A DNA stretch of 64,000 bases, taken from contig NZ_JBDUUF010000012.1 of assembly GCF_039939235.1 (NCBI RefSeq), forward strand, positions 83,774-147,773. Direction: 5' to 3'. The position numbers were made by a program, and so were the translations under genes. The DNA is from Gordonia sp. B21. GTDB lineage: Bacteria > Actinomycetota > Actinomycetes > Mycobacteriales > Mycobacteriaceae. This document shows, one piece after another, positions 5,361 to 50,169 of this stretch. The notes beneath the pieces were generated by a model that was not told the DNA's origin, did no database searches, and saw only the letters and a program-made list of their open reading frames with translations. How positions within the stretch are numbered: the stretch's first letter is position 1; every line of letters begins with the position of its first letter.

Positions 5361-7148
5361 CTACAGGTACTGCCCCGTGTTGGTCTCGGTGTCGATCGCA
5401 CGGCTCGCGCCCGCGCTCTTGCCGGTGACCAGCGTGCGGATGTAGACGATCCGCTCGCCCTTCTTGCCCGAGATCCGGGCCCAGTCGTCCGGATTCGTGG
5501 TGTTGGGCAGGTCCTCGTTCTCGGCGAACTCGTCGAGGATCGAGTCGAACAGATGCTGCACCCGCAGGCCCGGGGCACCGGTCTCCAGCTGCGACTTGAT
5601 CGCGTACTTCTTGGCTCGGTCGACGACGTTCTGGATCATCGCGCCCGAGTTGAAGTCCTTGAAGTACATGATCTCCTTGTCGCCGTTGGCGTAGGTGACC
5701 TCCAGGAAACGGTTGTCCTCGCTCTCGGCGTACATCCGCTCGACGACCTTCTCGATCATCGCCTTCACGCAGGCCGCGCGGTCTCCGCCGAACTCGTCGA
5801 GGTCGTCGGCGTGGATCGGCAGATCCTCGGTCAGGTACTTCGAGAAGATGTCGATCGCGCTCTCCGCGTCCGGACGCTCGATCTTGATCTTCACGTCGAG
5901 GCGACCGGGACGCAGGATCGCGGGGTCGATCATGTCCTCGCGGTTCGACGCACCGATCACGATGACGTTCTCGAGGCCCTCGACGCCGTCGATCTCGCTG
6001 AGCAGCTGCGGCACGACCGTGGTCTCGACGTCGGACGAGACACCCGAACCACGGGTTCGGAAGATCGAGTCCATCTCGTCGAAGAACACGATGACCGGCG
6101 TGCCCTCGGACGCCTTCTCCCGGGCGCGCTGGAAGATCAACCGGATGTGACGCTCGGTCTCACCGACGAACTTGTTCAGCAGCTCGGGGCCCTTGATGTT
6201 CAGGAAGTAGGACTTCGCCTCCTTGGCGTCGTCGCCGCGGGCCAGCGCGATCTTCTTGGCGAGCGAGTTCGCCACCGCCTTCGCGATGAGCGTCTTGCCA
6301 CAGCCGGGCGGACCGTAGAGCAGGACGCCCTTCGGCGGACGCAGCTGGTAGTCGCGGAACAGGTCCTTGTGCAGGAACGGAAGCTCGACGGCGTCGCGGA
6401 TCTGCTCGATCTGCCGGCCGAGGCCACCGATGTCCTCGTAGCCGACGTCGGGGACCTCTTCGAGGACCAGGTCCTCGACCTCGGCCTTGGGCACCCGCTC
6501 GAAGGCGAAACCGGCCTTGGTGTCGATGAGCAGCGAGTCACCGGGACGCAGCTTGCGGCGCTTGCCGTCCTCGCCGTCCACCTCGCCGAGCAGTGGCTCG
6601 GCCAGCCAGACCACGCGCTCCTCGTCGGCGTGACCGACGACCAGCGCACGCTTGCCGTCCCCGAGGACCTCGCGCAGCGTGCTGATCTCGCCGACCGTGT
6701 CGAAGTCACAGGCCTCGACGATGGTCAGCGCCTCGTTCAGGCGCAGCGTCTGACCCTTGCGGAGGGTTTCGGGCTCGATGTTCGGCGAGCAGGTGAGCCG
6801 CATCTTGCGGCCCGAGGTGAAGACGTCCACGGTCCCGTCGGGGTACGTGTCGAGCAGCACGCCGTAACCGCTCGGCGGCTGCCCGAGACGGTCCACCTCT
6901 TCGCGGAGTGCGACCAGTTGCTGCCGGGCCTCTTTGAGTGTGTCGAGCAACTTCGCATTGCGCGCCGTCAGTGCCTCGACACGTTCCTGGAGCTCCTTGG
7001 TGTCCGCCTGGCGCCCGAACGACGGACGTTCGGAACCACTCCGCGCGAGAGGCGGTGTGTAGGCAGGGGTGAAGCCCTCGTCGGGTGCAGTCGCGCTCTC
7101 GGGGACCCCGCGGTCCCCAGTGGCGTCGTGACGGTCAGATTCGGTCAT
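5361..7148 (-). CDS. mpa: proteasome-associated AAA ATPase (Mpa/ARC)
   Basis: N-terminal coiled coil, AAA Walker A GPPGCGKT, and a C-terminal ...TNTGQYL proteasome-docking motif. It sits in conserved context with dop and trmI. Confidence 0.95.
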
Positions 7149-7328
7149 TGCTGACTCCTCTCCCCGGCAATCACCCGATCCCTCGATCGGAATGCTCGCG
7201 CCGTATCACTACGCTACCGGGGCCGACGAAGAATCGCCCTTCACCCCGCGATCGACGGTGTTGACGGTGTGTTAAATGTGCGTACTCGCAACGTAATCGC
7301 GATCTTCGCGGCGCGGAGGATGTTCGGC

Positions 7329-9246
<1,918 letters not shown>

Positions 9247-9277
9247 CGGACTATGCAGATTGTCATAGGCTGGCGTC

Positions 9278-10138
9278 GTGGAGAAGGCGTACTACGAACC
9301 CGTCGAGGCCCCGGCATCGGCGAACACCGGCCCGGACACCGACCCGGCGGCGACCTACGAATACTTCCGTCCGACCCCCGCGACACTGAGCGTCTGGTCT
9401 GATCAGATGCAGCACGGCGGTCCCCCGTCGGCGCTGATGATGCGGTCGCTGTTGCGCTGCGCACCCGATCCCGGCCAGCACCTCACCCGCGTGACGACCG
9501 AGATCCTCGGTCCGATCGGACTGGGCGTCAACCGGATCCACGCCCGCGTCGCCCGTCCCGGCCGGCAGATCAGCCTGGTGGAGACCGAACTCGACGTGCA
9601 GCAGGCCGACGGGTCCTTCCGGACGGCGGCCCGGTCGGTCGGCTGGCGGATCCGCGCCAAGGACACCTCCGAGATCGCCAACGGGCCGGCTCCGCTGACC
9701 CCGCTGCCGGATGAGCTCGAGACGCAGATCGGCTTCCCCGACGACAGCGGCGAGGCCGTCGACTGGGGCACGCTCGGCTTCATCGGCACCGTCGAGTCGG
9801 CACGGACCGAGGGCCGCTACGGGCAGACCCCGGCGGTGTGGCTGCGCCCGGCGATCCCCCTCGTCGACGGCGAGAAGACCAGCGACCTCGAGTCGATCTT
9901 CACCGTCATCGACGTCGCCAACGGCCTGGGCACCCGACTGCGTCCGAACCAGTGGTCGTGGATGAACACCGACACCACCGTGCACCTCACCCGGGTTCCG
10001 AGCGGACCGTGGGTGGGGATCGACGCGCACATGGTCGCCGGCCCGGACGGCTTCGGCGCGACCCTCGGCGACCTCTACGACACGACCGGGTACATCGGGC
10101 GGTCGGCGCAGACGGTCATGCTGAACGCGGTCGGCTGA
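9278..10138 (+). CDS. thioesterase-like (hotdog fold, 4HBT_3 type) family protein
   Basis: 286-aa ORF with GTG start. Its size and two-lobed pattern are typical of actinobacterial 'thioesterase family protein'. There is no catalytic motif I can name with certainty. Confidence 0.5.
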   Translation: MEKAYYEPVEAPASANTGPDTDPAATYEYFRPTPATLSVWSDQMQHGGPPSALMMRSLLRCAPDPGQHLTRVTTEILGPIGLGVNRIHARVARPGRQISLVETELDVQQADGSFRTAARSVGWRIRAKDTSEIANGPAPLTPLPDELETQIGFPDDSGEAVDWGTLGFIGTVESARTEGRYGQTPAVWLRPAIPLVDGEKTSDLESIFTVIDVANGLGTRLRPNQWSWMNTDTTVHLTRVPSGPWVGIDAHMVAGPDGFGATLGDLYDTTGYIGRSAQTVMLNAVG

Positions 10139-10169
10139 CGACCGAACACGACGATGCAGACCTGCAGAC

Positions 10170-10214
10170 GGGAAGGGGCCACGTCCACGGGCCGGGGGAC
10201 GTGGCCCCTTCCCC
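10170..10214. terminator. bidirectional intrinsic terminator hairpin between the thioesterase-like gene (+) and hisG (-)
   Basis: Perfect 17-bp stem GGGAAGGGGCCACGTCC / GGACGTGGCCCCTTCCC with a 10-nt loop. Confidence 0.6.
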
Positions 10215-10232
10215 CTGCGCCGAAGCGCTGCG

Positions 10233-11078
10233 TCAGAAGCGGCAGGACCGGATGTCGGTCGCCAGGATCGCCCGCGCGCCGAGGTCGCTCAGGGCGTCCA
10301 TGAGGTTCTGGTGGTCCTTGCGCGGGACCATCGCACGCACGGCAACCCAGTCGGGGTCGGCCATCGGCGCGACCGTCGGGGACTCGATGCCCGGGGTGAT
10401 CGCCGACGCCTTGTCGAGGAGGGCGCGCGGGCAGTCGTAGTCGATCATCACGTACTGCTGACCGAAGACCACGCCCTGGACGCGGGCGATGAACTGCTTC
10501 TCGGCCTTGGTGAGGTCGGCATCGCGGCGCGAGATGAGCACGGCCTCGGAGTTGCAGAGGCTCTCGCCGAAGGCGGCGAGCCCGTGCTGACGAAGGGTGC
10601 GGCCGGAGCCGACGACGTCGGCGATGGCGTCGGCGACACCGAGCTGGATCGAGATCTCGACCGCGCCGTCGAGGCGGATGATCTCGGCGCTGATGCCGCG
10701 GGCGTCGAGGTCGCCGCGGACCAGGTTCGGGTACGACGTGGCGATGCGCTTGCCCGCGAGGTCGGCGACGGTCCACTCCTGGTCGGCGGGCGCCGCGTAT
10801 CGGAAGGTCGAGGAACCGAAGCCCATGGCGAGCTGCTCGTCGACGGCCGCGCCGGAGTCGAGGGCCAGGTCACGGCCGGTGATGCCGAGATCGAGACGAC
10901 CGGACGCGACGTAGATCGCGATGTCCTTGGGGCGGAGGAAGAAGAACTCGACGTCGTTGTTGTTGTCGAGAACGGTCAGGTCCTTGGAGTCGGACCGCTT
11001 GCGATAGCCGGCCTCGAGCAGGATGGCCGACGCGGATTCGGAGAGCGCACCCTTGTTGGGCACGGCAACTCGCAACAT
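10233..11078 (-). CDS. hisG: ATP phosphoribosyltransferase
   Basis: [14 protein letters not shown]...[20 protein letters not shown]...CRF is near-identical in pattern to Mtb HisG (Rv2121c). The start was set at ATG 11078, with AAGGA 8 nt upstream. Confidence 0.95.
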
Positions 11079-11154
11079 TTCGATGTCCTTTTCGTGGGAT
11101 TGCACTCAGCTGAGCGGAGTGACGTACGGGTGACGTTGCGGCCGGGTCCTCCGG

Positions 11155-11418
11155 TCACAGATGTCGGTACACGTCCTCCAGCTCGAGGCCCCGCTTGATC
11201 ATCATGACCTGCAACCAGTACAGGAGCTGCGAGATCTCCTCACCGAGCGAATCGTCGGATTCGTGTTCGGCGGCCAACCACACCTCACCGGCCTCTTCGA
11301 TGATCTTCTTGCCGAGAGTGTGCACACCCGAGTCGAGCGCGGCGATGGTACCCGATCCCTCGGGACGGGTCGCGGCCTTCTCGCTGAGTTCGGCGAACAG
11401 CTCCTCGAATGTCTTCAC
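11155..11418 (-). CDS. hisE: phosphoribosyl-ATP pyrophosphatase
   Basis: 87 aa, [24 protein letters not shown]...[23 protein letters not shown] (HisE/MazG-like). Its ATG overlaps the stop of the upstream HAD gene (ATGA). Confidence 0.9.
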
Positions 11419-12140
11419 GAGTCACCATTTTTGCATGTGGCGATATGCGCGAGCCCGCCGGTCCATGCCTCGGTGACCTCCTCGATGCTCAGACCCACCA
11501 GCGTGTGGCGGAACACACGCAGCGGGCCGGGCTCGACGGGGGCCGCCGACGGCACGACCAGCGTGGGCACCCCGGCCGTCGTCGCCGCCTGCGCACCGGT
11601 CGGCGAGTCCTCCACCGCGAGACAGTCGGCGGTCGAGGCGCCGACGAGTTCCGCGGCCCGCAGGTACGGATCCGGGGCCGGTTTGCCGACGGCGACCTCG
11701 TCACCGCACACCGTGGCGGTGAACCGGTGCCGTCCGATGGTCTCCAGGGCAACGTCGGCCACCTCACGCACGGTGTTGGTCACCAGCACCATCGGGATTC
11801 CCGCGCCGGCGACCAGCTCCAGCGCCTCGAGCGCACCCGGTCGCCACGGCAGTCCGTCGCCGAAGAGCTCGGTCACCCGGTCGAGGGTCCAGCGCCCGTC
11901 GGCGGCCGGGTCGCGGTCCTCCGGCGCGAGGCCGACGGCGTCGTGGAGTTTCGCCAGCGCGTCGGGCAGCGCGTTGCCGAGCGTCGACTCGCGCAGCTGT
12001 GGCGTCAACTCGATGCCGTGGCGTTCGGCGAGCTCACGCACCGCGATCTCCCAGATCGGCTCGGAATCGAGCAGGGTGCCATCCATGTCCCAGAGGACGG
12101 CGGCGGGGAGTCGGGAGGGAGCGAGGACTGCGTCGGTCAC
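11415..12140 (-). CDS. HAD-IA family hydrolase (phosphatase / beta-phosphoglucomutase-like)
   Basis: HAD motif [13 protein letters not shown], motif II VTNT, motif [11 protein letters not shown], motif [13 protein letters not shown]. The track ORF carries a 254-aa Arg-rich false extension. The start was set at GTG 12140, overlapping the stop of the upstream regulator (GTGA). Confidence 0.75.
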
Positions 12141-12934
12141 CCCTGCATCATCGCAACCCACTCCTCGGTCGGCTCGTCCGCCGGGTAGAAGAGCTCGATG
12201 GTCAGCTCCTCGAGAGTGACGTCGCGCGGTGACCCGAAGGTGGTCAGGGTGGTGAAGAACGACAGCTTCTGCTCGCCCAGCACGATCTCGAACGGCACCA
12301 GCAGCCGGGACGGATCGTGCGGCCGCTCCCCCGCCACCCGGCGCTCGTCGAGCCCGACGACGGTCTCGTACGCCGACACCTCCCGCTCGAGCGCGAGCAG
12401 CCGCTCGTCGCCGGTGATGCGGGCCATCCGTCGCAGGAGGTCGACGAGGTAGCCGCCCCACTCGTCGAAGTTGTGCGTCAGCTTCGCGAAGCCGTCGGGA
12501 TGCAGCGACACCCGGAACAGGTTGACCGGCGCGGCCTGGAATTCCTCCGGCAACAGGCCCAAGAAGCCGACCGCGGTGTCGTTGGCCAGCACGACGTTCC
12601 ACGTCCGATCCAGTGCGACGCCGAGATTCGGTTGGTGGGCGTCGAGCAGACGGACGATCTGGGCGCGCACCCGTGCCATCGTCTCGGCATCGAGCGGCTC
12701 CTCGGTGTAGCGCGGCGCGTGCCCGGCGGCAACGAGAAGCGAATTGCGTTCGCGCAGAGGGATGTCCAGCTTTTCGGCGAGGGCGTCGAGCAACTCCGGG
12801 CCGGGTCGGGACTTGCCGGTCTCGACGAAGCTGAGGTGCTTGGGCGACACCCCGACCGCGTAGGCGAGGTCGAGCTGGCTGATCGAGCGCCGGGAACGCC
12901 ACTGCCGCAGCAACGCCCCCACCTCGACGGTCAT
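12137..12934 (-). CDS. XRE-family HTH transcriptional regulator with a C-terminal MmyB-like ligand-binding domain
   Basis: N-terminal HTH LRQWRSRRSISQLDLAYAVGVSPKHLSFVETGK; the C-terminal ~170 aa have an MmyB-like pattern. It lies 4 nt downstream of the CinA-like gene stop. Confidence 0.8.
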   Translation of the reverse strand: MTVEVGALLRQWRSRRSISQLDLAYAVGVSPKHLSFVETGKSRPGPELLDALAEKLDIPLRERNSLLVAAGHAPRYTEEPLDAETMARVRAQIVRLLDAHQPNLGVALDRTWNVVLANDTAVGFLGLLPEEFQAAPVNLFRVSLHPDGFAKLTHNFDEWGGYLVDLLRRMARITGDERLLALEREVSAYETVVGLDERRVAGERPHDPSRLLVPFEIVLGEQKLSFFTTLTTFGSPRDVTLEELTIELFYPADEPTEEWVAMMQG

Positions 12935-12938
12935 GGCG

Positions 12939-13406
12939 TCATCGTAGACAGCCCTCGATCAGTTCGAGGGCGTACCCGATCGTCTGTGCGAGCACCTCCT
13001 CGGGTTCACCGTCGAACTCCTTGCGGGTCGCGCTCACCCGGCCGCGGTGATCGAGCCCGAACCAGACCGTGCCGGGCGCCGCCTCGTCGGGTTCGGGCCC
13101 GGCCTCGCCGGTCACCGCGACGACGATCTCGGCGTCGAAGAGCCGGGCGGTGGCAGCGGCCATCGAACGCGCGGCGGCCTCGCTGACGACGGGCCCCTCC
13201 GGCACCTCGAGCAGCGAGTACTTGACGTCCGGGTGATAGGCGATGACCCCGCCGCGGAACCAGGTCCCGGCCTGCGGGGCCTTGCTCAGCTCGCTGGCCA
13301 GGTTGCCGCCGGTCAGGGACTCGGCGACGGCGATGTGCTCGTCGCGGTCGAGGACGGCCTTCGCGATCCGCTCGCAGGTGCCGGAGAAGTCACTCACATC
13401 GGACAT
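12939..13406 (-). CDS. CinA C-terminal domain protein (PncC-like NMN deamidase family)
   Basis: AKAVLDRDEHIAVAESLTGGNLASELSKAPQAGTWFRGGVIAY...TGEAGP is the CinA_C pattern. The start was re-placed at ATG 13406. Confidence 0.7.
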   Translation of the reverse strand: MSDVSDFSGTCERIAKAVLDRDEHIAVAESLTGGNLASELSKAPQAGTWFRGGVIAYHPDVKYSLLEVPEGPVVSEAAARSMAAATARLFDAEIVVAVTGEAGPEPDEAAPGTVWFGLDHRGRVSATRKEFDGEPEEVLAQTIGYALELIEGCLR

Positions 13407-13493
13407 GACCGGACGATTACCGGATTCCGGCATTCTCAAACCACTACCTGACGGGTAGTGGCGTGTCGCACCGTCACTCGTCACCCTGTGGAC

Positions 13494-14294
13494 ATGGACC
13501 ACGCGAGCGAGAACCGAACGCCAACCGCGGTGATCTCCCCGGCGATGGGCGTGCCGGCACGGGTGTACCGGCGATTCTCGGAGGCACTGACCGACGACGG
13601 ATTCGACGTCCGGCTCGTACCGCGACGCGGGCTCGAAGAGGGGTCTCCCCCGCCGTCGCGCGGCACCGACTGGTCATATGAGGACGAGGCGGACGATCTC
13701 GCCGCGTCCGTCGCCGAATCCCGGGCGGCCACCGGCGGACCGGTCGTCGTGATCGGGCACAGCCTCGGCGCCCAGCTCGCCGCGCTGGCGGCACAGCGGT
13801 CCGGTGCGGCGCCGGACGGCATCGTCGCGATCGGCGCATCGGTGCCGTGGTTCCGGTTCTACGGGGTCCGCGCCGTGCCGTTCGCGGCGCTCGCCGCCTC
13901 GGTCGCGCCGATCGGCGCCGTCGTCGGTCATTGGCCGAGACAGGGATTCGCGGGTCCGACACCGCGCACGCTCATGCGGCAATGGGCGCGAATGGTGCTG
14001 ACCGGACGTCCGCCCTTCGATCTCGACGGTTCGGTCCGCGTGCCGACGCTCATGGTCCGGCTCGGGGACGACGAACTCGTCACCGATCCCGCCGCGGCCG
14101 CTTTCGAGACGGCCTTCGCGCAGGACGCCCTGACCCGCTGGGTGTACGACGACTCCCTCTGTCCCCCCGAGGGAAACGCGACGCATCTCGGCTGGAGCCG
14201 GACACCGCAGGTGGTGGCCCGGCGGATCGCGCAGTGGTGGCGATCGCACACCGGGGCCGACCCGTTGCGCGAGGGCGCGACCGAATCCGCCTGA
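13494..14294 (+). CDS. alpha/beta-hydrolase fold protein
   Basis: Nucleophile elbow VVVIGHSLGAQLA; size about 266 aa. It is divergent from the CinA-like gene. Confidence 0.6.
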   Translation: MDHASENRTPTAVISPAMGVPARVYRRFSEALTDDGFDVRLVPRRGLEEGSPPPSRGTDWSYEDEADDLAASVAESRAATGGPVVVIGHSLGAQLAALAAQRSGAAPDGIVAIGASVPWFRFYGVRAVPFAALAASVAPIGAVVGHWPRQGFAGPTPRTLMRQWARMVLTGRPPFDLDGSVRVPTLMVRLGDDELVTDPAAAAFETAFAQDALTRWVYDDSLCPPEGNATHLGWSRTPQVVARRIAQWWRSHTGADPLREGATESA

Positions 14295-14297
14295 CGA

Positions 14298-15773
14298 TCA
14301 GGCCTTCCAGGCCCCGGTGGTCGACTCGATTCGCGTCCGGGTGCGTTCCGCGGTGGCACGGCCCCACTCGCCCGTGGAGACGTAGACGATCACCGCGAGG
14401 ATGACCCCGCACACCGCCATCGCGATCCACACGGGCCGCGCCGCGCCGGACAGGCCTTCGGCGATCGGGCCGTCGATCCCGGCGAACGCGATCGCGCCGA
14501 ACACGGCCACGCCGAGCGCGGTGCCGACCTGTCGCCCGGTCGACGCCATCGCAGAGGCTAGACCCGCCTGGGTGCGGGGCATGCCGGACACGGCGCCGTT
14601 GGTGATCGGCGCGTTGAGGAACCCGAAGCCCAGGCCGAAGACCAGATACGATGCACCGACGTAGACATACGAGGTGTCGTCGCCCAGGCCGATGAGCATC
14701 AGCGACCCGGCGATGGTGGCGAACGAGCCGACCATCATCGGCAACCGCGTGCCGCGGTTGCCCACCAGGCGACCCGCGATGGGTGCGCAGACGACCGATG
14801 CGGCGGCCATCGGGAGGGTCATCAGGCCCGCGTTCATCGGCGACAGCCCGCGCACCTCCTGCAGGTACAGCGTGTTGAGGAACAGGAATCCGCCCGTCGC
14901 GGCGAAGGCGATCACCGCGCATGCGACGGCGCTGGTGAAGGGCGCGCTGCCGAAGAACCGCGGGTCGAGCAGCGGTTCGTCGCGGCGGTTCTCGTACCAG
15001 ACCAGAACGACGAGCGCGACCGCGGAGACCGCGAAGCAGCCGAGCACCGTCGGCGACGTCCAGCCGAGCGGACGGCCCTCGATGATCGCGAAGGTGAGGG
15101 TCGCGAGGAAGGCGAGGACCAGCACCTGCCCGACCGGGTCGGCGCGTCGTGCGTGTTCGGCGCGGGACTCGGGGACGAACCGAGTGGTGAGTGCGAGCGC
15201 GAGAAGGCAGACCGGCACGTTGAGCCAGAAGATGGCCTCCCAGCCGATCCCGGAGACGAGCGCGCCACCCACCACCGGGCCGAACGCCATGCTCAGACCG
15301 AAGGCCGTGCCCCACACGCCGATCGCCTGTGCCCGCTCCCGCGGGTCGACGAACACGTTGGTGACGATCGCCAGCGCGACCGGGTTCAGCATCGATCCGC
15401 CGATCGCCTGCACCATGCGGGCGCCGATGAGGAACTCGGCGCTGGGCGCGAGCGAACAGAGAACCGACGCCACCCCGAAGACCAGCAGGCCCACACGGAA
15501 GATCCGCTTGCGGCCGAAGCGGTCGCCGAGCGTGCCGCCGAAGATCAGCAGGCTCGCGATCACGAGTGCGTACGAGTCGAGCACCCACTGCAGTTGCGAC
15601 TCGGTGGCGTCGAGGTCGTGACCGATGGACGGGATGGCGACGTTCAACGCGGAGACGTCGAGTCCGACGATGAACAGGCTCAGACAGCACGTCGCGAGGA
15701 TGACGACCCGGTCGCGGCGGGTCAGGGTGCCGCCTGCGGATCGGGCATGGAGTGCGGACACCGCGCCGTTCAC
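14298..15773 (-). CDS. MFS transporter, DHA2 (EmrB/QacA) drug:H+ antiporter family, about 14 TM
   Basis: LSLFIVGLDVSALNVAIPSIGHDL...GDRFGRKRIF motifs and multiple TM helices. Confidence 0.85.
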   Translation of the reverse strand: MNGAVSALHARSAGGTLTRRDRVVILATCCLSLFIVGLDVSALNVAIPSIGHDLDATESQLQWVLDSYALVIASLLIFGGTLGDRFGRKRIFRVGLLVFGVASVLCSLAPSAEFLIGARMVQAIGGSMLNPVALAIVTNVFVDPRERAQAIGVWGTAFGLSMAFGPVVGGALVSGIGWEAIFWLNVPVCLLALALTTRFVPESRAEHARRADPVGQVLVLAFLATLTFAIIEGRPLGWTSPTVLGCFAVSAVALVVLVWYENRRDEPLLDPRFFGSAPFTSAVACAVIAFAATGGFLFLNTLYLQEVRGLSPMNAGLMTLPMAAASVVCAPIAGRLVGNRGTRLPMMVGSFATIAGSLMLIGLGDDTSYVYVGASYLVFGLGFGFLNAPITNGAVSGMPRTQAGLASAMASTGRQVGTALGVAVFGAIAFAGIDGPIAEGLSGAARPVWIAMAVCGVILAVIVYVSTGEWGRATAERTRTRIESTTGAWKA

Positions 15774-16219
15774 GACTCCGCCGCCCGGCGGAGCTTCTCG
15801 AGCAGTCCCGCGAGTTGCCGGAGCTCGGCGTCGGTGAGGGCGTCGAACATGTCCGGCGCGGTGGCCGGATTGTCGGTCACCGCGGTGACCACCCGCCGGC
15901 CCGCCTCGGTGATGGTGACGCGCCGGCAGCGACGGTCGTCCGGGTCGTCCTCACGGGTCACGAGCCCGTGTTCGACGAGATCGTCGACGATCCCGCTCAT
16001 CGCCGATTTGTCGACGCCCATCCGCTGCGCGAGCTCACGCTGGGTCATCGGCTGCACCGCGACGCGACGCAGCGCGCGGAACCGGCTGAACGGGATGTCG
16101 ATGACCTCGGTGATCCGGGCTCGCGACTCCCGCGACTGGTCCCGGACCAGGCTGTTCATCGTGAACCAGACCTCGGTCGCCGTCGGGGTGCCGGCGCGCG
16201 CCGGGTTGGTTGCAGACAT
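15770..16219 (-). CDS. MarR-family transcriptional regulator (co-transcribed with the MFS pump; stop/start overlap)
   Basis: Winged HTH MTQRELAQRMGVDKSAMSGIVDDLVEHGLVTREDDPDDRRCRRVTIT. Confidence 0.85.
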   Translation of the reverse strand: MSATNPARAGTPTATEVWFTMNSLVRDQSRESRARITEVIDIPFSRFRALRRVAVQPMTQRELAQRMGVDKSAMSGIVDDLVEHGLVTREDDPDDRRCRRVTITEAGRRVVTAVTDNPATAPDMFDALTDAELRQLAGLLEKLRRAAES

Positions 16220-27735: not shown

Positions 27736-28839
27736 ATGCACTCGCCGAGACGATCGCGCCCCCGTCACCAGCCCCCGAGAGGTCTCGCACGGTTGCGGCG
27801 ACCCGTCGCGGCGGCGGCCGCACTCGCCGCGGGTGTGGCGATCATCACGGCGTGCGGCTCCGACGACTCCGGGACCCCCGACGTAGCGACGGTGAGCCCC
27901 GCGACCGCCGTCGAGGCCCCGGCGGCGTCGAATCCGGTCGGCACCACCGTGCCCGCACCGGCCGGAGCCCGTGCCCTCGCGTCGTCGGGCTCGACCGTTG
28001 CCGTCGTCTCCCCCGACGGCAACCAGCTGCTGCGCTATGACACCGCGTCGATCACCGCGCCGCCGACGCCGATCGGCGTGCCCGGCCTGACCGCGCTGGC
28101 ACCCGACGCCGACGGCGGCTACCTCGCGGCCGGCCCCGGCACGCTGGTCGTCGTCGACGCCACGGGCCAGGTGCGGATCGGGGACCTCGACACCGACTCC
28201 CCGACCGCGATCGTCCGCGCGGCCGGTGGGCAGATCGTGGTCGGCACCTCCGACGGCCGTATCCTGATCTACGACGAGGACTTCCAGAAGAAGCACGACG
28301 CGCGGGAGTTCGTCCGCGTCGACTCGCTGACCGCGGCACCCGCATCGGCGGAGGGCCTCGACGGCCAGGTCGTCGTCCTCGACCGCGCGCAGTCCTCGGT
28401 GACCCCGATCGACCCGGCCGACGGCGACCCCGGGCCGGCGCTGCGTGCCGGCAACGGCGCCACCACGTCGACCGTCGACCGGTTCGGGCGGATCCTCGTG
28501 GCCAACACCCGCGACGGCGAGATCCTCGGATTCTATGGGTCGCCCCTGGTCATGCGGTTCCGCTATCCGGTCGCCGACGGCCCGTACGCCGTAGACTACG
28601 ACGACACCCGCAACGTGCTCTGGGTGTCGACGACGGGCAACAACGAGGTGGTGGCGTATGACCTGGCCGACGGCGAACCCACGGAGAAGCAGCGGTTCGC
28701 ATCCGTCGTCCAGCCCGACCGGATCACGGTCGACGACAAGGGCACGGTCTACGTCCTGTCCGCCCGCGACGGCCTGCTGCAGGTCGTTCCGCAGTCCGAC
28801 ACACCATTGGGTGTCAGCCCTGCCGAGCCGGGTCGGTGA
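27736..28839 (+). CDS. lipoprotein, beta-propeller-like (LppL/Rv2138-like)
   Basis: Signal peptide with lipobox AIITAC|GS. Repeated ...VVD/VGT.DG... segments suggest beta-propeller blades. Confidence 0.6.
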   Translation: MHSPRRSRPRHQPPRGLARLRRPVAAAAALAAGVAIITACGSDDSGTPDVATVSPATAVEAPAASNPVGTTVPAPAGARALASSGSTVAVVSPDGNQLLRYDTASITAPPTPIGVPGLTALAPDADGGYLAAGPGTLVVVDATGQVRIGDLDTDSPTAIVRAAGGQIVVGTSDGRILIYDEDFQKKHDAREFVRVDSLTAAPASAEGLDGQVVVLDRAQSSVTPIDPADGDPGPALRAGNGATTSTVDRFGRILVANTRDGEILGFYGSPLVMRFRYPVADGPYAVDYDDTRNVLWVSTTGNNEVVAYDLADGEPTEKQRFASVVQPDRITVDDKGTVYVLSARDGLLQVVPQSDTPLGVSPAEPGR

Positions 28840-45977: not shown

Positions 45978-47077
45978 CCACCGCCGACACCGCGGTCGCG
46001 GCGAAGTTGTCGATGCTCGACCGATTCCTGCCGGTGTGGATCGGCGCAGCAATGGTCGCCGGCCTGCTGCTGGGCCGCAACGTTCCCGGCCTGGGAGACG
46101 CCCTGGCGGCCGTGGAGATCGACGGTATCTCGCTGCCGATCGCTCTCGGACTGCTGATCATGATGTATCCGGTGCTGGCGAAGGTGCGCTACGACCGACT
46201 CGACTCGGTCACCGGCGATCGTCGCCTGCTGCTGGGATCGCTGCTGCTGAACTGGATCGTCGGACCCGTGTTGATGTTCGCGCTGGCCTGGCTTTTGCTC
46301 CCCGACCTACCGGAGTACCGGACCGGGCTGATCATCGTCGGTCTGGCGCGCTGTATCGCGATGGTCATCATCTGGAACGACCTGGCGTGCGGCGACCGTG
46401 AAGCCGCTGCCGTCCTCGTCGCACTGAACTCGGTGTTCCAGGTGATCATGTTCGCCGTGCTGGGCTGGTTCTACCTCTCGGTGCTACCCGGATGGCTCGG
46501 CCTGGAACAGACGACCATCGACACCTCGCCGTGGCAGATCGCGAAGTCGGTGCTGATCTTCCTCGGAATCCCGCTGGTTGCCGGCTATCTCACCCGCCGC
46601 ATCGGTGAACGGGCCAGAGGCCGCGAATGGTACGAGTCCTCGTTCCTCCCGCGATTGGGGCCGTGGGCCCTCTACGGTCTGCTGTTCACCATCGTCATCC
46701 TGTTCGCCTTGCAGGGGGAGCAGATCACCTCTCACCCGTGGGACGTCGTGCGGATCGCGCTGCCGCTGCTGATCTACTTCGCGGTGATGTGGGGTGGCGG
46801 ATTCGTCCTCGGCGCCGTGATGGGGCTGGGTTACGCACGGACCACCACGCTGGCGTTCACCGCTGCCGGCAACAACTTCGAGCTCGCCATCGCCGTTGCG
46901 ATCGCGACCTATGGTGCGACCTCCGGTCAGGCTCTTGCCGGAGTCATCGGCCCACTCATCGAGGTGCCCGTCCTCGTCGCGCTGGTCTATGTGTCTCTGG
47001 CGTTGCGGAAACGCTTCACCAGTCCGACGACCGCCTCCAGCCCAGATGTGTCGAAGGAGCCTGTTCGCGATGTCTGA
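45974..47077 (+). CDS. acr3: arsenite efflux transporter, ACR3 family
   Basis: About 10 TM, RFLPVWIGAAMVAGLLLG...LIMMYPVLAKV... ACR3 pattern; its GTG overlaps the arsR stop (GTGA). Confidence 0.9.
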   Translation: MTTADTAVAAKLSMLDRFLPVWIGAAMVAGLLLGRNVPGLGDALAAVEIDGISLPIALGLLIMMYPVLAKVRYDRLDSVTGDRRLLLGSLLLNWIVGPVLMFALAWLLLPDLPEYRTGLIIVGLARCIAMVIIWNDLACGDREAAAVLVALNSVFQVIMFAVLGWFYLSVLPGWLGLEQTTIDTSPWQIAKSVLIFLGIPLVAGYLTRRIGERARGREWYESSFLPRLGPWALYGLLFTIVILFALQGEQITSHPWDVVRIALPLLIYFAVMWGGGFVLGAVMGLGYARTTTLAFTAAGNNFELAIAVAIATYGATSGQALAGVIGPLIEVPVLVALVYVSLALRKRFTSPTTASSPDVSKEPVRDV

Positions 47078-47753
47078 GAATGTGTTGGACGAACAGCTGA
47101 GTCGCGGCGAACACCGCGCCCAACCCGAGCTGCTGATGCCGCATACCGTGCTCGCCCGTACCGCAGCTGACTTGGCCGCCAAGTACGAAGGGGTGGTGTC
47201 TCGACAGACGGTAGAACGCTGTGTCTTCGAGTCCTACACCGCGTTACGGCGCACCTCCCGGGTGCATACGCATCTGACGACCTTGGCGGGCCGGTTCGCT
47301 GCCGATCGGTTACGCGCCCTCGCCCAGGCTGAGGGGGCGGTACCCAAGGATGTGCCCGAAGTCCTGTTCATCTGCCTCCAGAACGCCGGCCGCTCGCAGA
47401 TGGCTGCCGGATTGATGACCCACCACGCCACAGGTCGGGTACATGTGCGCTCGGCCGGATTGGTGCCGGCTCATTCGATCAACCCGACCGTCGTCGAAGC
47501 GATGTCAGAAATTGGCGTCGACCTGGGTACCGAGTACCCCAAACCACTCACCGACGATGTGGTCGCCGCCGCTGACGTGGTCGTAGCGATGGGCTGCGGC
47601 GACGCGTGCCCGATCTATCCCGGCAAGCGGTATCTCGATTGGACGGTCTCCGATCCTGAAGGCCGTCCACTTGGCGAGGTTCGCGCGATCCACGATGACC
47701 TTGACGCCCGGGTTCGCGAGCTCCTTGCCGAGCTCACGGCCAACCATCTGTGA
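47070..47753 (+). CDS. arsC: arsenate reductase, LMW-PTP family, with a ~110-aa N-terminal extension domain
   Basis: C-terminal LMW-PTP fold LFICLQNAGRSQMAAG...GCGDACP. The N-terminal 110 aa have no motif I recognise. GAAGGAG SD; the start overlaps the ACR3 stop. Confidence 0.8.
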   Translation: MSENVLDEQLSRGEHRAQPELLMPHTVLARTAADLAAKYEGVVSRQTVERCVFESYTALRRTSRVHTHLTTLAGRFAADRLRALAQAEGAVPKDVPEVLFICLQNAGRSQMAAGLMTHHATGRVHVRSAGLVPAHSINPTVVEAMSEIGVDLGTEYPKPLTDDVVAAADVVVAMGCGDACPIYPGKRYLDWTVSDPEGRPLGEVRAIHDDLDARVRELLAELTANHL

Positions 47754-47794
47754 CTTTCCGAGCATTCCTCCACAGCTGAAAGGGACTGTGTCTC

Positions 47795-48220
47795 ATGTCT
47801 TCCTCTCGACCTAGCGTGCTGTTCGTGTGCGTCCACAATGCCGGCCGCTCACAGATGGCCGCGGGGTTCCTCACCGCGCTCAGCCAGGGCAGTGTCGAGG
47901 TCCGCTCCGCCGGATCTGCGCCCGCCGACTCAATCAATCCAGCCGCGGTCGAGGCGATGGCTGAAGTCGGTATCGACATCTCGGCACAGTCACCCAAGGT
48001 CCTCACCCCCGACACCGTCGAATCCTCCGATGTGGTGATCACCATGGGCTGTGGCGATGCATGCCCAGTATTCCCCGGCGTCAGCTACCGCGACTGGGCC
48101 CTCGACGACCCCGCCGGCCAAGGCATCGACGCGGTCCGCCCGATCCGCGATCAGATCCGCGCACTGGTCGCGGACCTCCTCGACGAACTGCTCCCCGCTA
48201 ACCAGCAGGTCGGCCAGTGA
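47795..48220 (+). CDS. arsC: arsenate reductase, LMW-PTP family (mycothiol/mycoredoxin-coupled type)
   Basis: VLFVCVHNAGRSQMAAGF (CX5R P-loop), GCGDACP; 141 aa. Confidence 0.85.
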   Translation: MSSSRPSVLFVCVHNAGRSQMAAGFLTALSQGSVEVRSAGSAPADSINPAAVEAMAEVGIDISAQSPKVLTPDTVESSDVVITMGCGDACPVFPGVSYRDWALDDPAGQGIDAVRPIRDQIRALVADLLDELLPANQQVGQ

Positions 48221-48627
48221 GCACACCACCGCAGGTGCTGTTCGTGTGCGTGTCCAACCGCGGCAAATCGGTGATGGCCGAACACCTCACACCGACAGTC
48301 ACCGACCGGATCACCCCGTCCTCGGCCGGCACCAGCGCGAAAATCGGCGGCCAGGTCAACGACCTGTCCGCCCAGGCGCTCGCCGAAGTCGGCGCCACCG
48401 TGGACGGGCATCAGCCGCGGCAACTCACCGACGAACTGATGCAAACTGCAGATCTCGTCGTGGTGGTCGGCACCGCCGACGTCACCCCACCCGACGGCGT
48501 CGCCCTCGAAGTGTGGAACACCGACGAACCCTCCGAACGGGGCATCGACGGTATCGAACGGATGCGACTAATCCGCGACGACATCACCAACCGGATCCGC
48601 GCCCTCGCCGACCGCATCGCGCGGTAG
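48217..48627 (+). CDS. LMW-PTP-like arsenate reductase paralog with an atypical P-loop (CVSNRGKS)
   Basis: VLFVCVSNRGKSVMAE... same fold; its GTG overlaps the preceding stop (GTGA). Confidence 0.7.
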   Translation: MSTPPQVLFVCVSNRGKSVMAEHLTPTVTDRITPSSAGTSAKIGGQVNDLSAQALAEVGATVDGHQPRQLTDELMQTADLVVVVGTADVTPPDGVALEVWNTDEPSERGIDGIERMRLIRDDITNRIRALADRIAR

Positions 48628-48650
48628 GCGAGAGCGCAAGCCACGACCCC

Positions 48651-49136
48651 TCAGCAGCAAGCAGTGCGCACCTCAGCCGGTTCGGCGGCGCTGCCACCGC
48701 AGCACACCGAACCCTGCTCGACGTCATCGTTGGCGTTCTGCTCCAACAGTTTCGGGCTGGTCCCGAACGTGTCGGAGTCGGCGAGCACGGTGTAGACCTC
48801 CCACTTCTCGTTCGCCGGTCCGGTCACCCAGACCTTGTCCTGCGTTGCGAAACAGCAGGTGGAGTTGATCTCCTCCTGGGTGAACAGGCCCTCCCCGGAC
48901 AGCCTGGCGATCTCGGCGTGCACCTTCTCGCTCGATTCGACCTCGACGCCGAGGTGGTTGATCGTGCCGCCCTGGCCGGGGTTCTCTAGCAGCACCAGTT
49001 TCAGGGGCGGCTCGACGATCGCGAAGTTGGCGTATCCCGGCTTGCGTTTGGCCGGGGTGGTGTTGAACAGCTTGGAGTAGAACTCGATCGCGGTATCGAG
49101 ATCATCGACGTTGAGCGCGAGCTGCATACGGGACAT
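48651..49136 (-). CDS. VOC/glyoxalase-family protein, ArsI/CadI-like (candidate C-As lyase or metal-binding protein)
   Basis: VOC fold with a vicinal Cys pair (STCCFATQD) and a Cys-rich C-terminus (VCCGG...TACC). Start at ATG 49136, GAAGGTG 6 nt upstream. Confidence 0.65.
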   Translation of the reverse strand: MSRMQLALNVDDLDTAIEFYSKLFNTTPAKRKPGYANFAIVEPPLKLVLLENPGQGGTINHLGVEVESSEKVHAEIARLSGEGLFTQEEINSTCCFATQDKVWVTGPANEKWEVYTVLADSDTFGTSPKLLEQNANDDVEQGSVCCGGSAAEPAEVRTACC

Positions 49137-49200
49137 GACCATCACCTTCACCTGTGAGACATATATCGAACTACTGACACATGCAGGGTGCCACCTTTTC

Positions 49201-49210
49201 GACATATGTC
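49201..49210. promoter_or_regulatory. candidate operator, perfect 10-bp palindrome GACATATGTC in the divergent arsI-like/arsR2 intergenic region (a related GAGACATATATCGA half-site lies upstream)
   Basis: Palindrome read directly from the sequence. Confidence 0.4.
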
Positions 49211-49233
49211 AAGTAGGGGCGTACGATCTGGTC

Positions 49234-49596
49234 ATGCCGAAGCCCTTGCCGATGGTCGACATCAGCGCCCCGATCTGCTGCGCACCGGTATCCGCGGCTC
49301 CGCTCGATGACGACACCGCCCTAGAAATCGCTCTGCGACTCAAGGCCCTGGCCGATCCCGTTCGGATCAAACTCGTCTCAATCCTGCTTACCGACACCGG
49401 TGACGGGACCTGCACCTGCGACCTCGCGACCGCGGTCGGCCTCACCGAAGCCACCACCAGTCACCACCTGGGGCAGCTCCGCAAAGCCGGCATGGTCACC
49501 CCCGAGCGCCGCGGCATGAACGTCTACTACCGAGCGCAACCGGACTCGTTGGAAGCACTACGCAACGTTCTCAGCGCTACGACGGGTTGCTGTTGA
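49234..49596 (+). CDS. arsR: ArsR/SmtB-family metalloid sensor with N-terminal Cys pair and C-terminal Cys pair
   Basis: APICCAPV (N-terminal CC), TCTCDL helix-3 Cys, C-terminal TGCC, HTH ATTSHHLGQLRKAGMV. Start re-placed at ATG 49234. Confidence 0.8.
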   Translation: MPKPLPMVDISAPICCAPVSAAPLDDDTALEIALRLKALADPVRIKLVSILLTDTGDGTCTCDLATAVGLTEATTSHHLGQLRKAGMVTPERRGMNVYYRAQPDSLEALRNVLSATTGCC

Positions 49597-49617
49597 ACGG
49601 CGACGGCACGAACTGAG

Positions 49618-50169
49618 CGAGCCTTATCCGGGTGTCCTTTTGGCAGGCCAACTCCGGTGTCTTTCAGCAGGTCAGCGAGCATGGCGAGCAATCCAGCTCG
49701 GCTGGTGGCGGGCAGATCGGATCGGTGATCACGGCGTGGCCGGCGCCAGCGAGGGCGGTGATGCGGGCGGCGACGCTGACCGCGTGCCCGAACAGGTCTC
49801 CGTCGCGGACGACTGCGCTGCCGTAGTGGATCGATCCCGGCGCGTAGGGCGATGAATCCGTCTTGACCGGCGGCCGCGGCCGCGGGGGCGGTGATCGTGG
49901 CGAGGATCACTTGGGGGGCGTCGGCGGTGAGCATCACCGCATCGCCGATGGCCTTGACCAGCCGCGTGCCCGGTCATAGAGCCTGCCTGCCAGGTCTGAG
50001 AGGCCAACCGTATGGCCAGTTCTGCGGCTTCCTGGTCGCCGCAGAACTCGGTGAACACGCTGTATCCGGCGAGGTCGACGAACGCCACCGCGACGTCACG
50101 CTGCTCGAGCTCGGCGAGCTCGTCCGAGGGAGGGCCATGGTGATGCCCGTGCAGTGGTGGCGTGGTCAT
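49618..50169 (-). pseudogene. class III nucleotidyl-cyclase-like single-domain gene with Cys-rich tail, disrupted by at least two frameshifts
   Basis: Frame 1 VAVAFVDLAGYSVFTEF; frame 2 ...GDAVMLTADAP...; frame 3 ...APGSIHYGSAVVRDGDLFGHAVSVAARITALAGAGHAVITDPICPPPAELDCSPCSLTC*. These are successive cyclase motifs in three different frames. Its ATG overlaps the methyltransferase stop (ATGA). Confidence 0.45.

Follow-up and report, generated by a model that had tools for sequence, protein, structure and literature searches.

The hisE-hisG pair is leaderless in relatives of Gordonia. A transcription start, ribosome footprints, a conserved -10 element, and a C at position -1 have been described at the orthologous hisE GTG of M. 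tuberculosis (Rv2122c-Rv2121c) and M. smegmatis (MSMEG_4181-4180) (PMC4633059, S4 Fig), and hisEG of C. glutamicum is likewise leaderless (PMC3896937). MmyB-like XRE regulators of the MltR family, which join an Xre HTH to a PAS-like ligand-binding domain, are typically encoded divergently from their target, usually the divergent neighbor, and pseudo-palindromic B-boxes have been proposed as binding sites for MmyB (PMC3406030). The HAD-IA phosphatases with a C1 cap include the sugar-phosphate phosphatases T. maritima TM1254, E. coli HxpB/YniC, and the β-phosphoglucomutase family.

We analyzed a 64,000-nucleotide stretch of DNA from Gordonia sp. B21, here called the window, in which homologs of all these systems lie side by side. 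Its hisE-hisG pair has the same gene order as the leaderless pairs and the same geometry, with GTG followed by AAR, a C at -1, and a -10 element at the same distance; the lack of a 5' UTR, established in the relatives (PMC4633059, PMC3896937), is predicted here. Unlike in those relatives, the putative Gordonia promoter lies wholly inside the coding sequence of a HAD phosphatase whose stop codon overlaps the hisE start. The window's regulator shares both domains and the divergent-target layout of the MmyB-like family (PMC3406030). However, its partner is an α/β-hydrolase gene, not a dehydrogenase/reductase or antibiotic gene, and in the clade of the window a CinA_C gene is inserted between the candidate operator and the regulator. 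The HAD protein has the four catalytic motifs and similar length of the capped phosphatases, and its motifs align with those of TM1254 and the E. coli 2-deoxyglucose-6-P phosphatase, but no specific NCBIfam equivalog model matches it above that model's cut-off. Finally, metH, HAD, hisE, and hisG form a block with shared order and orientation in Mycobacteroides salmoniphilum, a Mycobacterium MAG, and several Gordonia species. One MFS gene interrupts this block in Mycolicibacterium hassiacum, whereas six genes (enoyl-CoA hydratase, MarR, MFS, α/β-hydrolase, CinA_C, and MmyB-like regulator) stand between metH and HAD in the window.

Layout of the array

The array runs along the minus strand in the order CinA_C, XRE/MmyB regulator, HAD-IA phosphatase, hisE, and hisG and ends in a strong terminator hairpin (Table 1). 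We thus confirm the five closely packed, co-oriented genes described in an earlier note on this DNA. Read directly from the sequence, 4 nt (cgcc) separate the CinA stop from the regulator ATG, the stop of the regulator gene shares 4 nt (GTGA) with the HAD start, and hisE and hisG are 76 nt apart. The earlier note had also recognized a stop/start overlap between HAD and hisE; the overlap exists and spans 4 nt, but its sequence is GTGA, not ATGA. The spacing of the array alone is not unusual, because 4-base overlaps are common in the window, with further instances at 15770-15773, 28836-28839, and 40324-40327.

Table 1. Features of the array and its surroundings (coordinates are those of the window)
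Feature	Coordinates	Strand	Details
Stem-loop terminator	10161..10220	-	3' of hisG; common to the convergent thioesterase-like gene 9278-10138 (+)
hisG, ATP phosphoribosyltransferase, long form with HisG_C	10233..11078	-	Pfam HisG and HisG_C; TIGR00070 2.8e-51; TIGR03455 3.8e-26
hisE, phosphoribosyl-ATP diphosphatase	11155..11418	-	GTG start; NF001610 1.6e-47
Candidate extended -10 of hisE-hisG	11427..11435	-	TG 11434-11435; hexamer AAAAAT 11427-11432; 8-nt spacer; GTG at 11418
HAD superfamily subfamily IA (variant 3) phosphatase	11415..12140	-	GTG start; Pfam Hydrolase, HAD_2 2.4e-23; TIGR01509 above cut-off
XRE-family regulator with MmyB-like ligand-binding domain	12137..12934	-	HTH_31 6.9e-11; MLTR_LBD 2e-19
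Candidate -10 GATGAT for leaderless HAD transcript	12147..12152	-	6-nt spacer; GTG at 12140
Stand-alone CinA_C / PncC-like protein (nicotinamide-nucleotide amidohydrolase family)	12939..13406	-	PF02464 9.4e-35; TIGR00199 3.6e-27
Candidate -10 TACGAT for leaderless regulator transcript	12941..12946	-	6-nt spacer; ATG at 12934
Palindrome ACTACC-N5-GGTAGT, candidate operator of the MmyB-like regulator	13443..13459		In the 87-nt divergent region between α/β-hydrolase and CinA
α/β-hydrolase, divergent	13494..14294	+	Abhydrolase_6, Hydrolase_4

The hairpin beyond hisG has a perfect stem of about 17 bp and a folding energy of -55 kcal/mol (z -4.25), which none of 200 shuffled sequences equaled, and it is the sole outlier (z -4.9) among the 60-nt windows folded across 10050-13650. 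The same scan revealed no terminator-like hairpin inside the array. A moderately stable hairpin in the HAD coding region (11491-11550; z -2.6) was considered as a terminator and dropped since it is no outlier among these 60-nt windows. An Rfam scan of positions 9000-15000 (E≤1) returned two chance-level matches, both on the post-hisG hairpin, and found no T-box, riboswitch, or attenuator upstream of hisE or HAD.

Conserved elements upstream of hisE, HAD, and the regulator

A sigma-70 consensus scan found no promoter, but such a scan demands a -35 box and is unsuited to the -10-only promoters of actinobacteria; we therefore used a comparative alignment anchored on start codons. The survey covered 80 loci from Gordonia, Rhodococcus, Lentzea, and Mycobacterium, whose phylogenetic relatedness means that counts overstate independent events. 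Contigs were scanned with hisG, not HAD, as the anchor so that the survey of genes upstream of hisE would stay unbiased. In the window and in all 80 loci, hisE is followed directly by hisG on the same strand.

The hisE start is invariably GTGAAR (80/80), and a common pattern precedes it at a fixed distance: TG-n-nAnnAT, 8 nt, and a C at -1. Positions -18 to -9 and -1 are strongly conserved while the flanks are not, with individual counts of 69 for T-17, 69 for G-16, 73 for A-13, 77 for A-10, 68 for T-9, and 71 for C-1 (n = 80). The exact TG-n-nAnnAT-N8 motif, whose chance of matching at one fixed position is about 1.6e-4, occurs in 66 of the 80 loci whatever lies upstream: in 23 of 26 where it falls within HAD coding sequence, 16 of 23 with a short intergenic region, and 26 of 30 with a different gene in between. 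In the window, it occupies the last HAD codons. Measured against TANNNT, the -10 hexamers are missing the first T, and the 8-nt spacer of hisE is about as long as such spacers usually get. A TGACC-like box between -48 and -42 relative to hisE is conserved as well, and this promoter pattern does not account for it.

The NF001610 alignment covers model positions 7-93 of 93, so the hisE start corresponds to the re-annotated mycobacterial GTG. Mycobacteroides and Mycolicibacterium hisE show identical promoter geometry, their annotated open reading frame (ORF) beginning 18 nt too early. Taken together, hisE is the predicted leaderless first gene of a hisE-hisG unit. For hisG, we adopted the ATG at 11078, which has an ATG at the equivalent position in 79 of the 80 loci, and not the GTG at 11105.

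Comparable elements precede HAD and the regulator. We aligned 42 HAD starts (41 loci and the window) carrying an nAnnAT hexamer 5 to 8 nt before an in-frame start, and the dominant arrangement is GATGAT, GAGAAT, AATGAT, or CATGAT with an in-frame GTG after precisely 6 nt. This geometry is independent of the upstream gene and of the length of the N-terminal extension. The window's GATGAT falls within the last regulator codons (A-M-M-Q-G-stop), and the HAD transcript would be leaderless from GATGAT-N6-GTG. An alternative HAD start at GTG 12161, seven codons upstream, was rejected, as both this geometry and the database annotation favor 12140. At the regulator start, the window and most of the 17 regulator-bearing loci share cTA(C/G)GAT, 6 to 7 nt, and ATG, whether or not CinA precedes the regulator; three loci (L001, L032, and L033) have variant hexamers. 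The CinA stop codon (12939-12941) overlaps the last base of TACGAT, and a leaderless regulator transcript would begin at the ATG of TACGAT-N6-ATG.

Probable tandem units and the single-operon alternative

We consider it about 75% probable, from comparative sequence evidence, that the array is a row of at least three tandem units, each led by a gene with a leaderless-type start, and not one histidine operon. The -10 element of each unit would be embedded in the final codons of the ORF before it. The extended -10 TGcAAAAAT at the 3' end of HAD would direct transcription from the G of the hisE GTG, and hisE-hisG would form an ancient bicistronic unit whose leaderless mRNA is translated and ends at the post-hisG hairpin. 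HAD would likewise use its own -10 within the 3' end of the regulator gene, and CinA_C and the regulator would be a clade-specific insertion belonging with the divergent α/β-hydrolase, the group being controlled through the conserved palindromic operator. We infer promoter activity in Gordonia from conservation and orthology. Read-through from upstream promoters could occur but would not be needed for hisEG expression.

The 4-nt overlaps have a simple origin under such an arrangement of tandem units. Upstream ORFs would read through the promoter until the TGA within the GTGA of the leaderless start; the overlaps would thus arise because the invariant GTGA at that start supplies the TGA of the upstream ORF. 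This suggests a caution for reading high-GC actinobacterial genomes: a 4-nt stop/start overlap is no evidence of an operon if the downstream gene is leaderless, because the promoter of such a gene must sit in the upstream ORF and GTGA supplies that ORF's stop. The array would then be ordinary, since its genes look like back-to-back units with promoters inside the preceding genes. By the conservation described here, Gordonia, Rhodococcus, and Lentzea would also share the leaderless hisEG promoter that experiments have established in their relatives.

The main alternative is that all five genes form one operon transcribed from a promoter on the palindrome side, with overlaps that couple translation and a ligand-sensing regulator that controls the phosphatase together with the first two steps of histidine synthesis. 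Co-orientation, gaps of 4, -4, and -4 nt, the absence of a terminator-like hairpin within the array, and the retention of the regulator/HAD GTGA overlap in most regulator-bearing loci are consistent with it. The earlier note had implied that the overlaps bind the regulator, phosphatase, and hisEG into one unit, a claim that fits poorly with the conserved internal -10 elements and leaderless-type starts at all three junctions. The same note had named a transcription start between HAD and hisE as a finding that would overturn its claim, and orthology predicts such a start: mapping placed the leaderless start of M. tuberculosis and M. smegmatis at this GTG (PMC4633059), and C. glutamicum hisEG is leaderless too (PMC3896937).

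Gene content points the same way. The regulator is present in 17 of the 80 loci and CinA in 8, leaving 63 and 72 in which hisEG and its promoter are unchanged without them. CinA is limited to the eight closest loci, where the matches begin at residue 1. By contrast, 78 of the 80 loci have HAD upstream of hisE in the same orientation, and in 48 the two are no more than 200 nt apart. Mycobacteroides shows this arrangement as well, and other mycobacteria likewise have HAD upstream of hisE. HAD-hisE-hisG is a conserved arrangement in relatives, but the set from CinA to hisG is not kept together. Gene order across the survey defines metH-HAD-hisE-hisG as the ancestral order, with HAD an ancient neighbor, and marks the regulator and CinA as clade-specific.

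The regulator also appears to look elsewhere for its target. Its protein matches HTH_31 at residues 4-66 and PF17765 at residues 89-259 (70.7 bits; cut-off 26.3), which identifies it as MmyB-like, and regulator-bearing loci without CinA place it directly divergent from the α/β-hydrolase. The shared divergent region contains the palindrome CCACTACCt-N3-aGGTAGTsG in the window, where CinA_C sits between, and in each of the 16 regulator-bearing loci that have an α/β-hydrolase match (L032, which has no such match, was left out); L005 and L033 carry a second copy upstream of the regulator. Within the window, the palindrome is unique at up to two mismatches, and no further copy was found near HAD or hisE. 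Direct action of the regulator on hisEG was rejected for want of such a copy. The α/β-hydrolase is the likely target of the regulator, which would bind the palindrome at the divergent region, and for this pairing of an MmyB-like regulator with an α/β-hydrolase, ACTACC-N5-GGTAGT offers a testable candidate operator.

Against this background, and with 4-base overlaps commonplace in the window, we regard a single five-gene operon as unlikely. Translationally coupled read-through into one long transcript may nevertheless occur beside the internal starts of the tandem units, because there is no terminator between the genes and two junctions overlap by 4 nt; the conserved regulator/HAD overlap is compatible with such co-transcription.

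The HAD phosphatase and histidine synthesis

The HAD protein is 100% identical to an annotated 241-amino-acid protein of Gordonia aurantiaca and matches TIGR01509 at 47.6 bits (cut-off 29.4). Its motifs I to IV (DMDGT, VTNT, GKPAPD, and EDS) align with those of TM1254 and YniC, and with its C1 cap they place it in subfamily IA. Among its NCBIfam families, HxpB, the β-PGM family, and sugar phosphatase score best, and no histidinol-phosphatase family is among the 25 listed of 26 matched. Its PDB neighbors are capped sugar phosphatases (3kbb, 3.9e-18; 1te2, 5.6e-14), and the characterized proteins closest to it (TM1254, HxpB/YniC, and the β-PGM family) are sugar-phosphate phosphatases. A full-text literature search with the locus tags of the HAD orthologue returned unrelated papers only. 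Most probably, the protein dephosphorylates small phosphoesters or sugar phosphates and plays no dedicated part in making histidine.

A role in histidine synthesis would instead explain why HAD is kept beside hisE: it could be a primary or back-up histidinol-phosphate phosphatase (HolPase), or a pyrophosphatase that pulls HisG/HisE forward. Its proximity to hisE in the 48 loci, adjoining it in Mycobacteroides too, favors this idea, as does a weak, sub-threshold similarity to HAD-type inorganic pyrophosphatase. When HisN and the four IMPase paralogues are all missing, a C. glutamicum mutant can still grow, if slowly, in the absence of histidine, which implies a further HolPase (PMC5516325), and P. 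aeruginosa provides documented cases of generic phosphatases with HolPase as a side activity (PMC12220765). However, Actinobacteria use the IMPase-like HisN, and known HAD-type HolPases are of the capless HisB-N type with a binuclear metal site (PMC5516325), to which the window protein does not belong by sequence. Its subfamily and sugar-phosphatase relatives, with no known histidinol-phosphatase type among them, likewise tell against the functional unit with hisEG that the earlier note implied. Neighborhood is in any case a weak guide to function, because impA lies in a his operon of Gordonia and its relatives yet has no HolPase activity (PMC5516325). Gene order offers a competing association. 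HAD is separated from hisE in 30 of the 80 loci. It stands beside metH but away from hisE in 17, whereas in 34 it adjoins hisE and is apart from metH; seven loci, one of them a Mycobacterium, have the four genes in an unbroken row. Where the order is broken, HAD thus stays with metH in 17 loci, and in Rhodococcus and Lentzea it overlaps the metH stop, a translational overlap that further argues against a histidine role. On balance, we find such a role improbable.

The most specific version, in which the HAD between metH and hisE across Mycobacteriales supplies the residual non-IMPase activity as the missing back-up HolPase, is a very long shot; its position beside hisE would then reflect a real, if auxiliary, part in histidine synthesis. 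In M. tuberculosis H37Rv, which we take to be a histidine prototroph nonetheless, PPE37 and not HAD lies upstream of hisE, and this counts against a HAD role.

Gene layout and conserved neighbourhood

The window has a G+C content of ~70%, and its HAD protein matches one annotated in Gordonia aurantiaca with 100% identity (241 aa), which assigns the window to that species. The earlier note had described a co-oriented array joined by stop/start overlaps. The 4-nt gap between CinA and the regulator and the GTGA overlap between the regulator and HAD genes both read as claimed, while the HAD/hisE overlap is GTGA instead of ATGA; hisE and hisG are 76 nt apart. Overlaps of 4 bases are common in other parts of the window (15770-15773, 28836-28839, and 40324-40327), so this spacing, though real, is not unusual.

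Features of the array and its divergent neighbour (window positions)
Feature	Positions	Strand	Remarks
hisG	10233-11078	minus	ATG at 11078; HisG and HisG_C
hisE	11155-11418	minus	GTG start; NF001610, 1.6e-47
HAD subfamily IA hydrolase	11415-12140	minus	GTG start
XRE regulator	12137-12934	minus	MmyB-like ligand-binding domain
CinA_C/PncC-like gene	12939-13406	minus	stand-alone
Perfect palindrome	13443-13459		ACTACC-N5-GGTAGT; within 87-nt α/β-hydrolase/CinA intergenic region
α/β-hydrolase	13494-14294	plus	divergent

To sample the DNA upstream of hisE without bias, we anchored a scan of genome contigs on hisG, which returned 80 loci (~60 Gordonia, 11 Rhodococcus, 8 Lentzea, and 1 Mycobacterium), and compared their neighbourhoods by tblastn and ORF clustering. 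In 78 of the 80 loci, hisE has a HAD orthologue upstream in the same orientation, at a distance of at most 200 nt in 48 and with 0.3 to 9 kb of other genes between in 30. The surrounding gene order is PAC2(-) / metH / HAD / hisE / hisG / thioesterase(-). HAD adjoins metH in 24 of 62 informative loci; where the order is broken, 17 loci keep HAD beside metH and 34 keep it beside hisE. The metH, HAD, hisE, and hisG genes form an uninterrupted run in 7 loci, the Mycobacterium among them, and two Pfam-labelled contigs carry metH-HAD-hisE-hisG (Mycobacteroides salmoniphilum) and metH-HAD-MFS-hisE-hisG (Mycolicibacterium hassiacum). In Rhodococcus and Lentzea, HAD looks translationally coupled to metH, since its ATG overlaps the metH stop as ATGTCTGA (L062-L064, L069-L075, and L077); hisE there lies 1.8 to 9 kb beyond HAD, with genes that we named by reading their sequences (rhodanese-like and RluA-like) between the two.

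Only 17 of the 80 loci have the regulator, and CinA_C is confined to the 8 closest loci. Six genes are inserted between metH and HAD in the window, encoding an enoyl-CoA hydratase, MarR, an MFS protein, the α/β-hydrolase, CinA_C, and the regulator. Of these, the regulator and CinA genes were inserted recently and belong with the divergent hydrolase. On the 3' side of the array, 5361-9246 encodes Mpa/ARC (proteasome ATPase), TrmI, and a RecB-like nuclease, the gene neighbourhood seen next to hisG in M. tuberculosis (Rv2115c-Rv2119). Elsewhere in the window, 46000-50000 has a G+C content of 0.64-0.65 versus ~0.70 and few high-GC3 ORF calls, and may have been acquired horizontally or be non-coding.

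A conserved promoter-like block at hisE

Alignment of the 70 nt upstream of hisE across the 80 loci, with the start codon as anchor, revealed a sharply conserved block within otherwise unconserved DNA: A-18, T-17 (69/80), G-16 (69/80), A-13 (73/80), A-10 (77/80), T-9 (68/80), and C-1 (71/80), followed by an invariant start, GTGAAR. The block is a predicted extended -10 promoter, TG-n-nAnnAT, separated from the start codon by 8 nt. An exact match to this motif, which has a probability of ~1.6e-4 by chance at a fixed position, is found where the upstream DNA is HAD coding sequence (23/26), a short intergenic region (16/23), or another gene (26/30). In the window it occupies 11427-11435, within the last HAD codons.

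Mycobacteroides and Mycolicibacterium share this geometry, 18 nt inside an annotated 93-codon ORF. Public calls for the mycobacterial HisE are 93 aa long (L081, 7360-7641; L083, 5701-5982), with the -10 and GTGAAG 18 nt within, and the NCBIfam HisE model likewise has 6 extra N-terminal positions. Such an internal -10 and start have been reported for Rv2122c and MSMEG_4181, where the mapped transcription start, RNA-seq boundary, and ribosome footprints all begin at the GTG, with a cytosine at -1 and conservation of the -10 nucleotides (Shell et al.; PMC4633059, S4 Fig). The hisEG mRNA of C. glutamicum is also leaderless by RNA-seq, according to a review of histidine biosynthesis (PMC3896937). 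By orthology, hisE-hisG in the window is probably a leaderless unit, with a putative promoter of its own in Gordonia. The earlier note had named a transcription start between HAD and hisE as a result that would refute the operon reading; three related genera have that start at the orthologous base, which makes a single operon unlikely.

A conserved TGACC-like box, (T/G)TGACC(T), lies at -48 to -42 of hisE (C-43 in 68/80; window 11460-11465, minus strand) in coding and intergenic contexts alike among L001-L080. At 28 nt from the -10 hexamer it is too distant to be a sigma-A -35; it may be a regulator site.

Three tandem units and the target of the regulator

The HAD and regulator junctions share the pattern of the hisE junction, pointing to putative promoters there as well. 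For HAD, 42 sequences (41 loci and the window) carry an nAnnAT hexamer 5-8 nt upstream of an in-frame start, and the commonest form is GATGAT, GAGAAT, AATGAT, or CATGAT with a spacer of exactly 6 nt to an in-frame GTG. The form is kept despite differing upstream genes and widely varying lengths of the HAD N-terminal extension; a second Gordonia clade has an AGGAGG-type ribosome-binding site instead. The window hexamer (12147-12152) falls within the last regulator codons (A-M-M-Q-G-stop). At the regulator, cTA(C/G)GAT and 6-7 nt precede the ATG in the window and in the majority of the 17 loci that have the regulator, whether or not CinA lies upstream, and three loci have variant hexamers; the window copy is TACGAT (12941-12946), with the CinA stop codon on its last base. 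In L079, one of the hisG-anchored loci, three tandem copies of a 15-nt unit containing the HAD start codon, GGGGTGAACCAAGCA, occupy the regulator/HAD junction (~8925-8975). A scan of the whole window found like architecture at other gene starts. One is MarR (15770-16219, minus strand), with a TACGAT-N6-ATG leaderless-type start at 16219 and a stop overlapping the downstream MFS start by 4 nt.

The earlier observation stands apart from the one corrected overlap, and its interpretation is supported in part: the HAD-hisE-hisG arrangement is conserved. These sequence patterns suggest that the array most likely consists of three units in tandem (CinA-regulator, HAD, and hisE-hisG), with candidate promoters embedded in the preceding ORF. 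Each upstream ORF would stay open across the embedded promoter and end at the TGA within the conserved GTGA of the next leaderless start, which would account for the two GTGA overlaps. Read-through transcription across the array is possible, as a hairpin scan of 10050-13650 found no terminator between its genes; the sole outlier was a very stable stem-loop 3' of hisG (-55 kcal/mol, z -4.25). A hairpin inside HAD (11491-11550, minus strand; ~70-130 nt 5' of the hisE start) is no outlier (-35 kcal/mol, z -2.6). The array is another instance of elements of known kinds: the leaderless hisEG unit, MmyB-like regulators paired with divergent targets, and HAD-IA phosphatases.

The palindrome upstream of CinA has the consensus CCACTACCt-N3-aGGTAGTsG in the window and in 16 of 16 regulator-bearing loci, namely, those whose α/β-hydrolase match allowed the region to be examined. 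It is unique in the window at up to 2 mismatches, but 45 of 100 shuffles gave one match or more, so one copy alone is within chance expectation; what gives the palindrome weight is its conservation from locus to locus. Where CinA is absent, ~22 nt separate the palindrome from the regulator -10 downstream of it. The CinA-bearing L005 and L033 have a second copy, cgTTACCcgtgAGGTAGTcg, between CinA and the regulator, ~60 nt 5' of the regulator ATG; this copy has been lost from the window and from its nearest relatives. Regulators of this family typically lie divergent to their target gene, and pseudo-palindromes are proposed sites for MmyB (PMC3406030). The conserved palindrome is therefore a candidate operator, and the likeliest targets of the regulator are the hydrolase and, together with CinA, the regulator gene itself, not HAD or hisEG.

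Candidate roles of the HAD enzyme

The HAD protein retains all four HAD motifs and aligns with the phosphorylated-carbohydrate phosphatase TM1254 of T. maritima and the 2-deoxyglucose-6-P phosphatase of E. coli. It passes only generic HAD-IA models, and all specific equivalogs fall below cut-off, the best being HxpB, the β-PGM family, and sugar phosphatases; the enzyme is most likely a phosphatase of sugar phosphates or other small phosphoesters. Known HAD-type histidinol-phosphate phosphatases are of the HisB-N type, and Actinobacteria use the IMPase-like HisN (PMC5516325). A his-gene neighbourhood is a weak guide to function, because impA, part of a his operon in Corynebacterium, Gordonia, and Mycobacterium, lacks histidinol-phosphate phosphatase activity (PMC5516325). 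A C. glutamicum mutant that lacks HisN together with its four paralogues is no more than bradytrophic (PMC5516325); therefore, some further phosphatase exists. Generic phosphatases of P. aeruginosa have a documented side activity on histidinol phosphate (PMC12220765). These two cases leave a small chance that the conserved HAD neighbour contributes to the histidine pathway, which we consider very unlikely.
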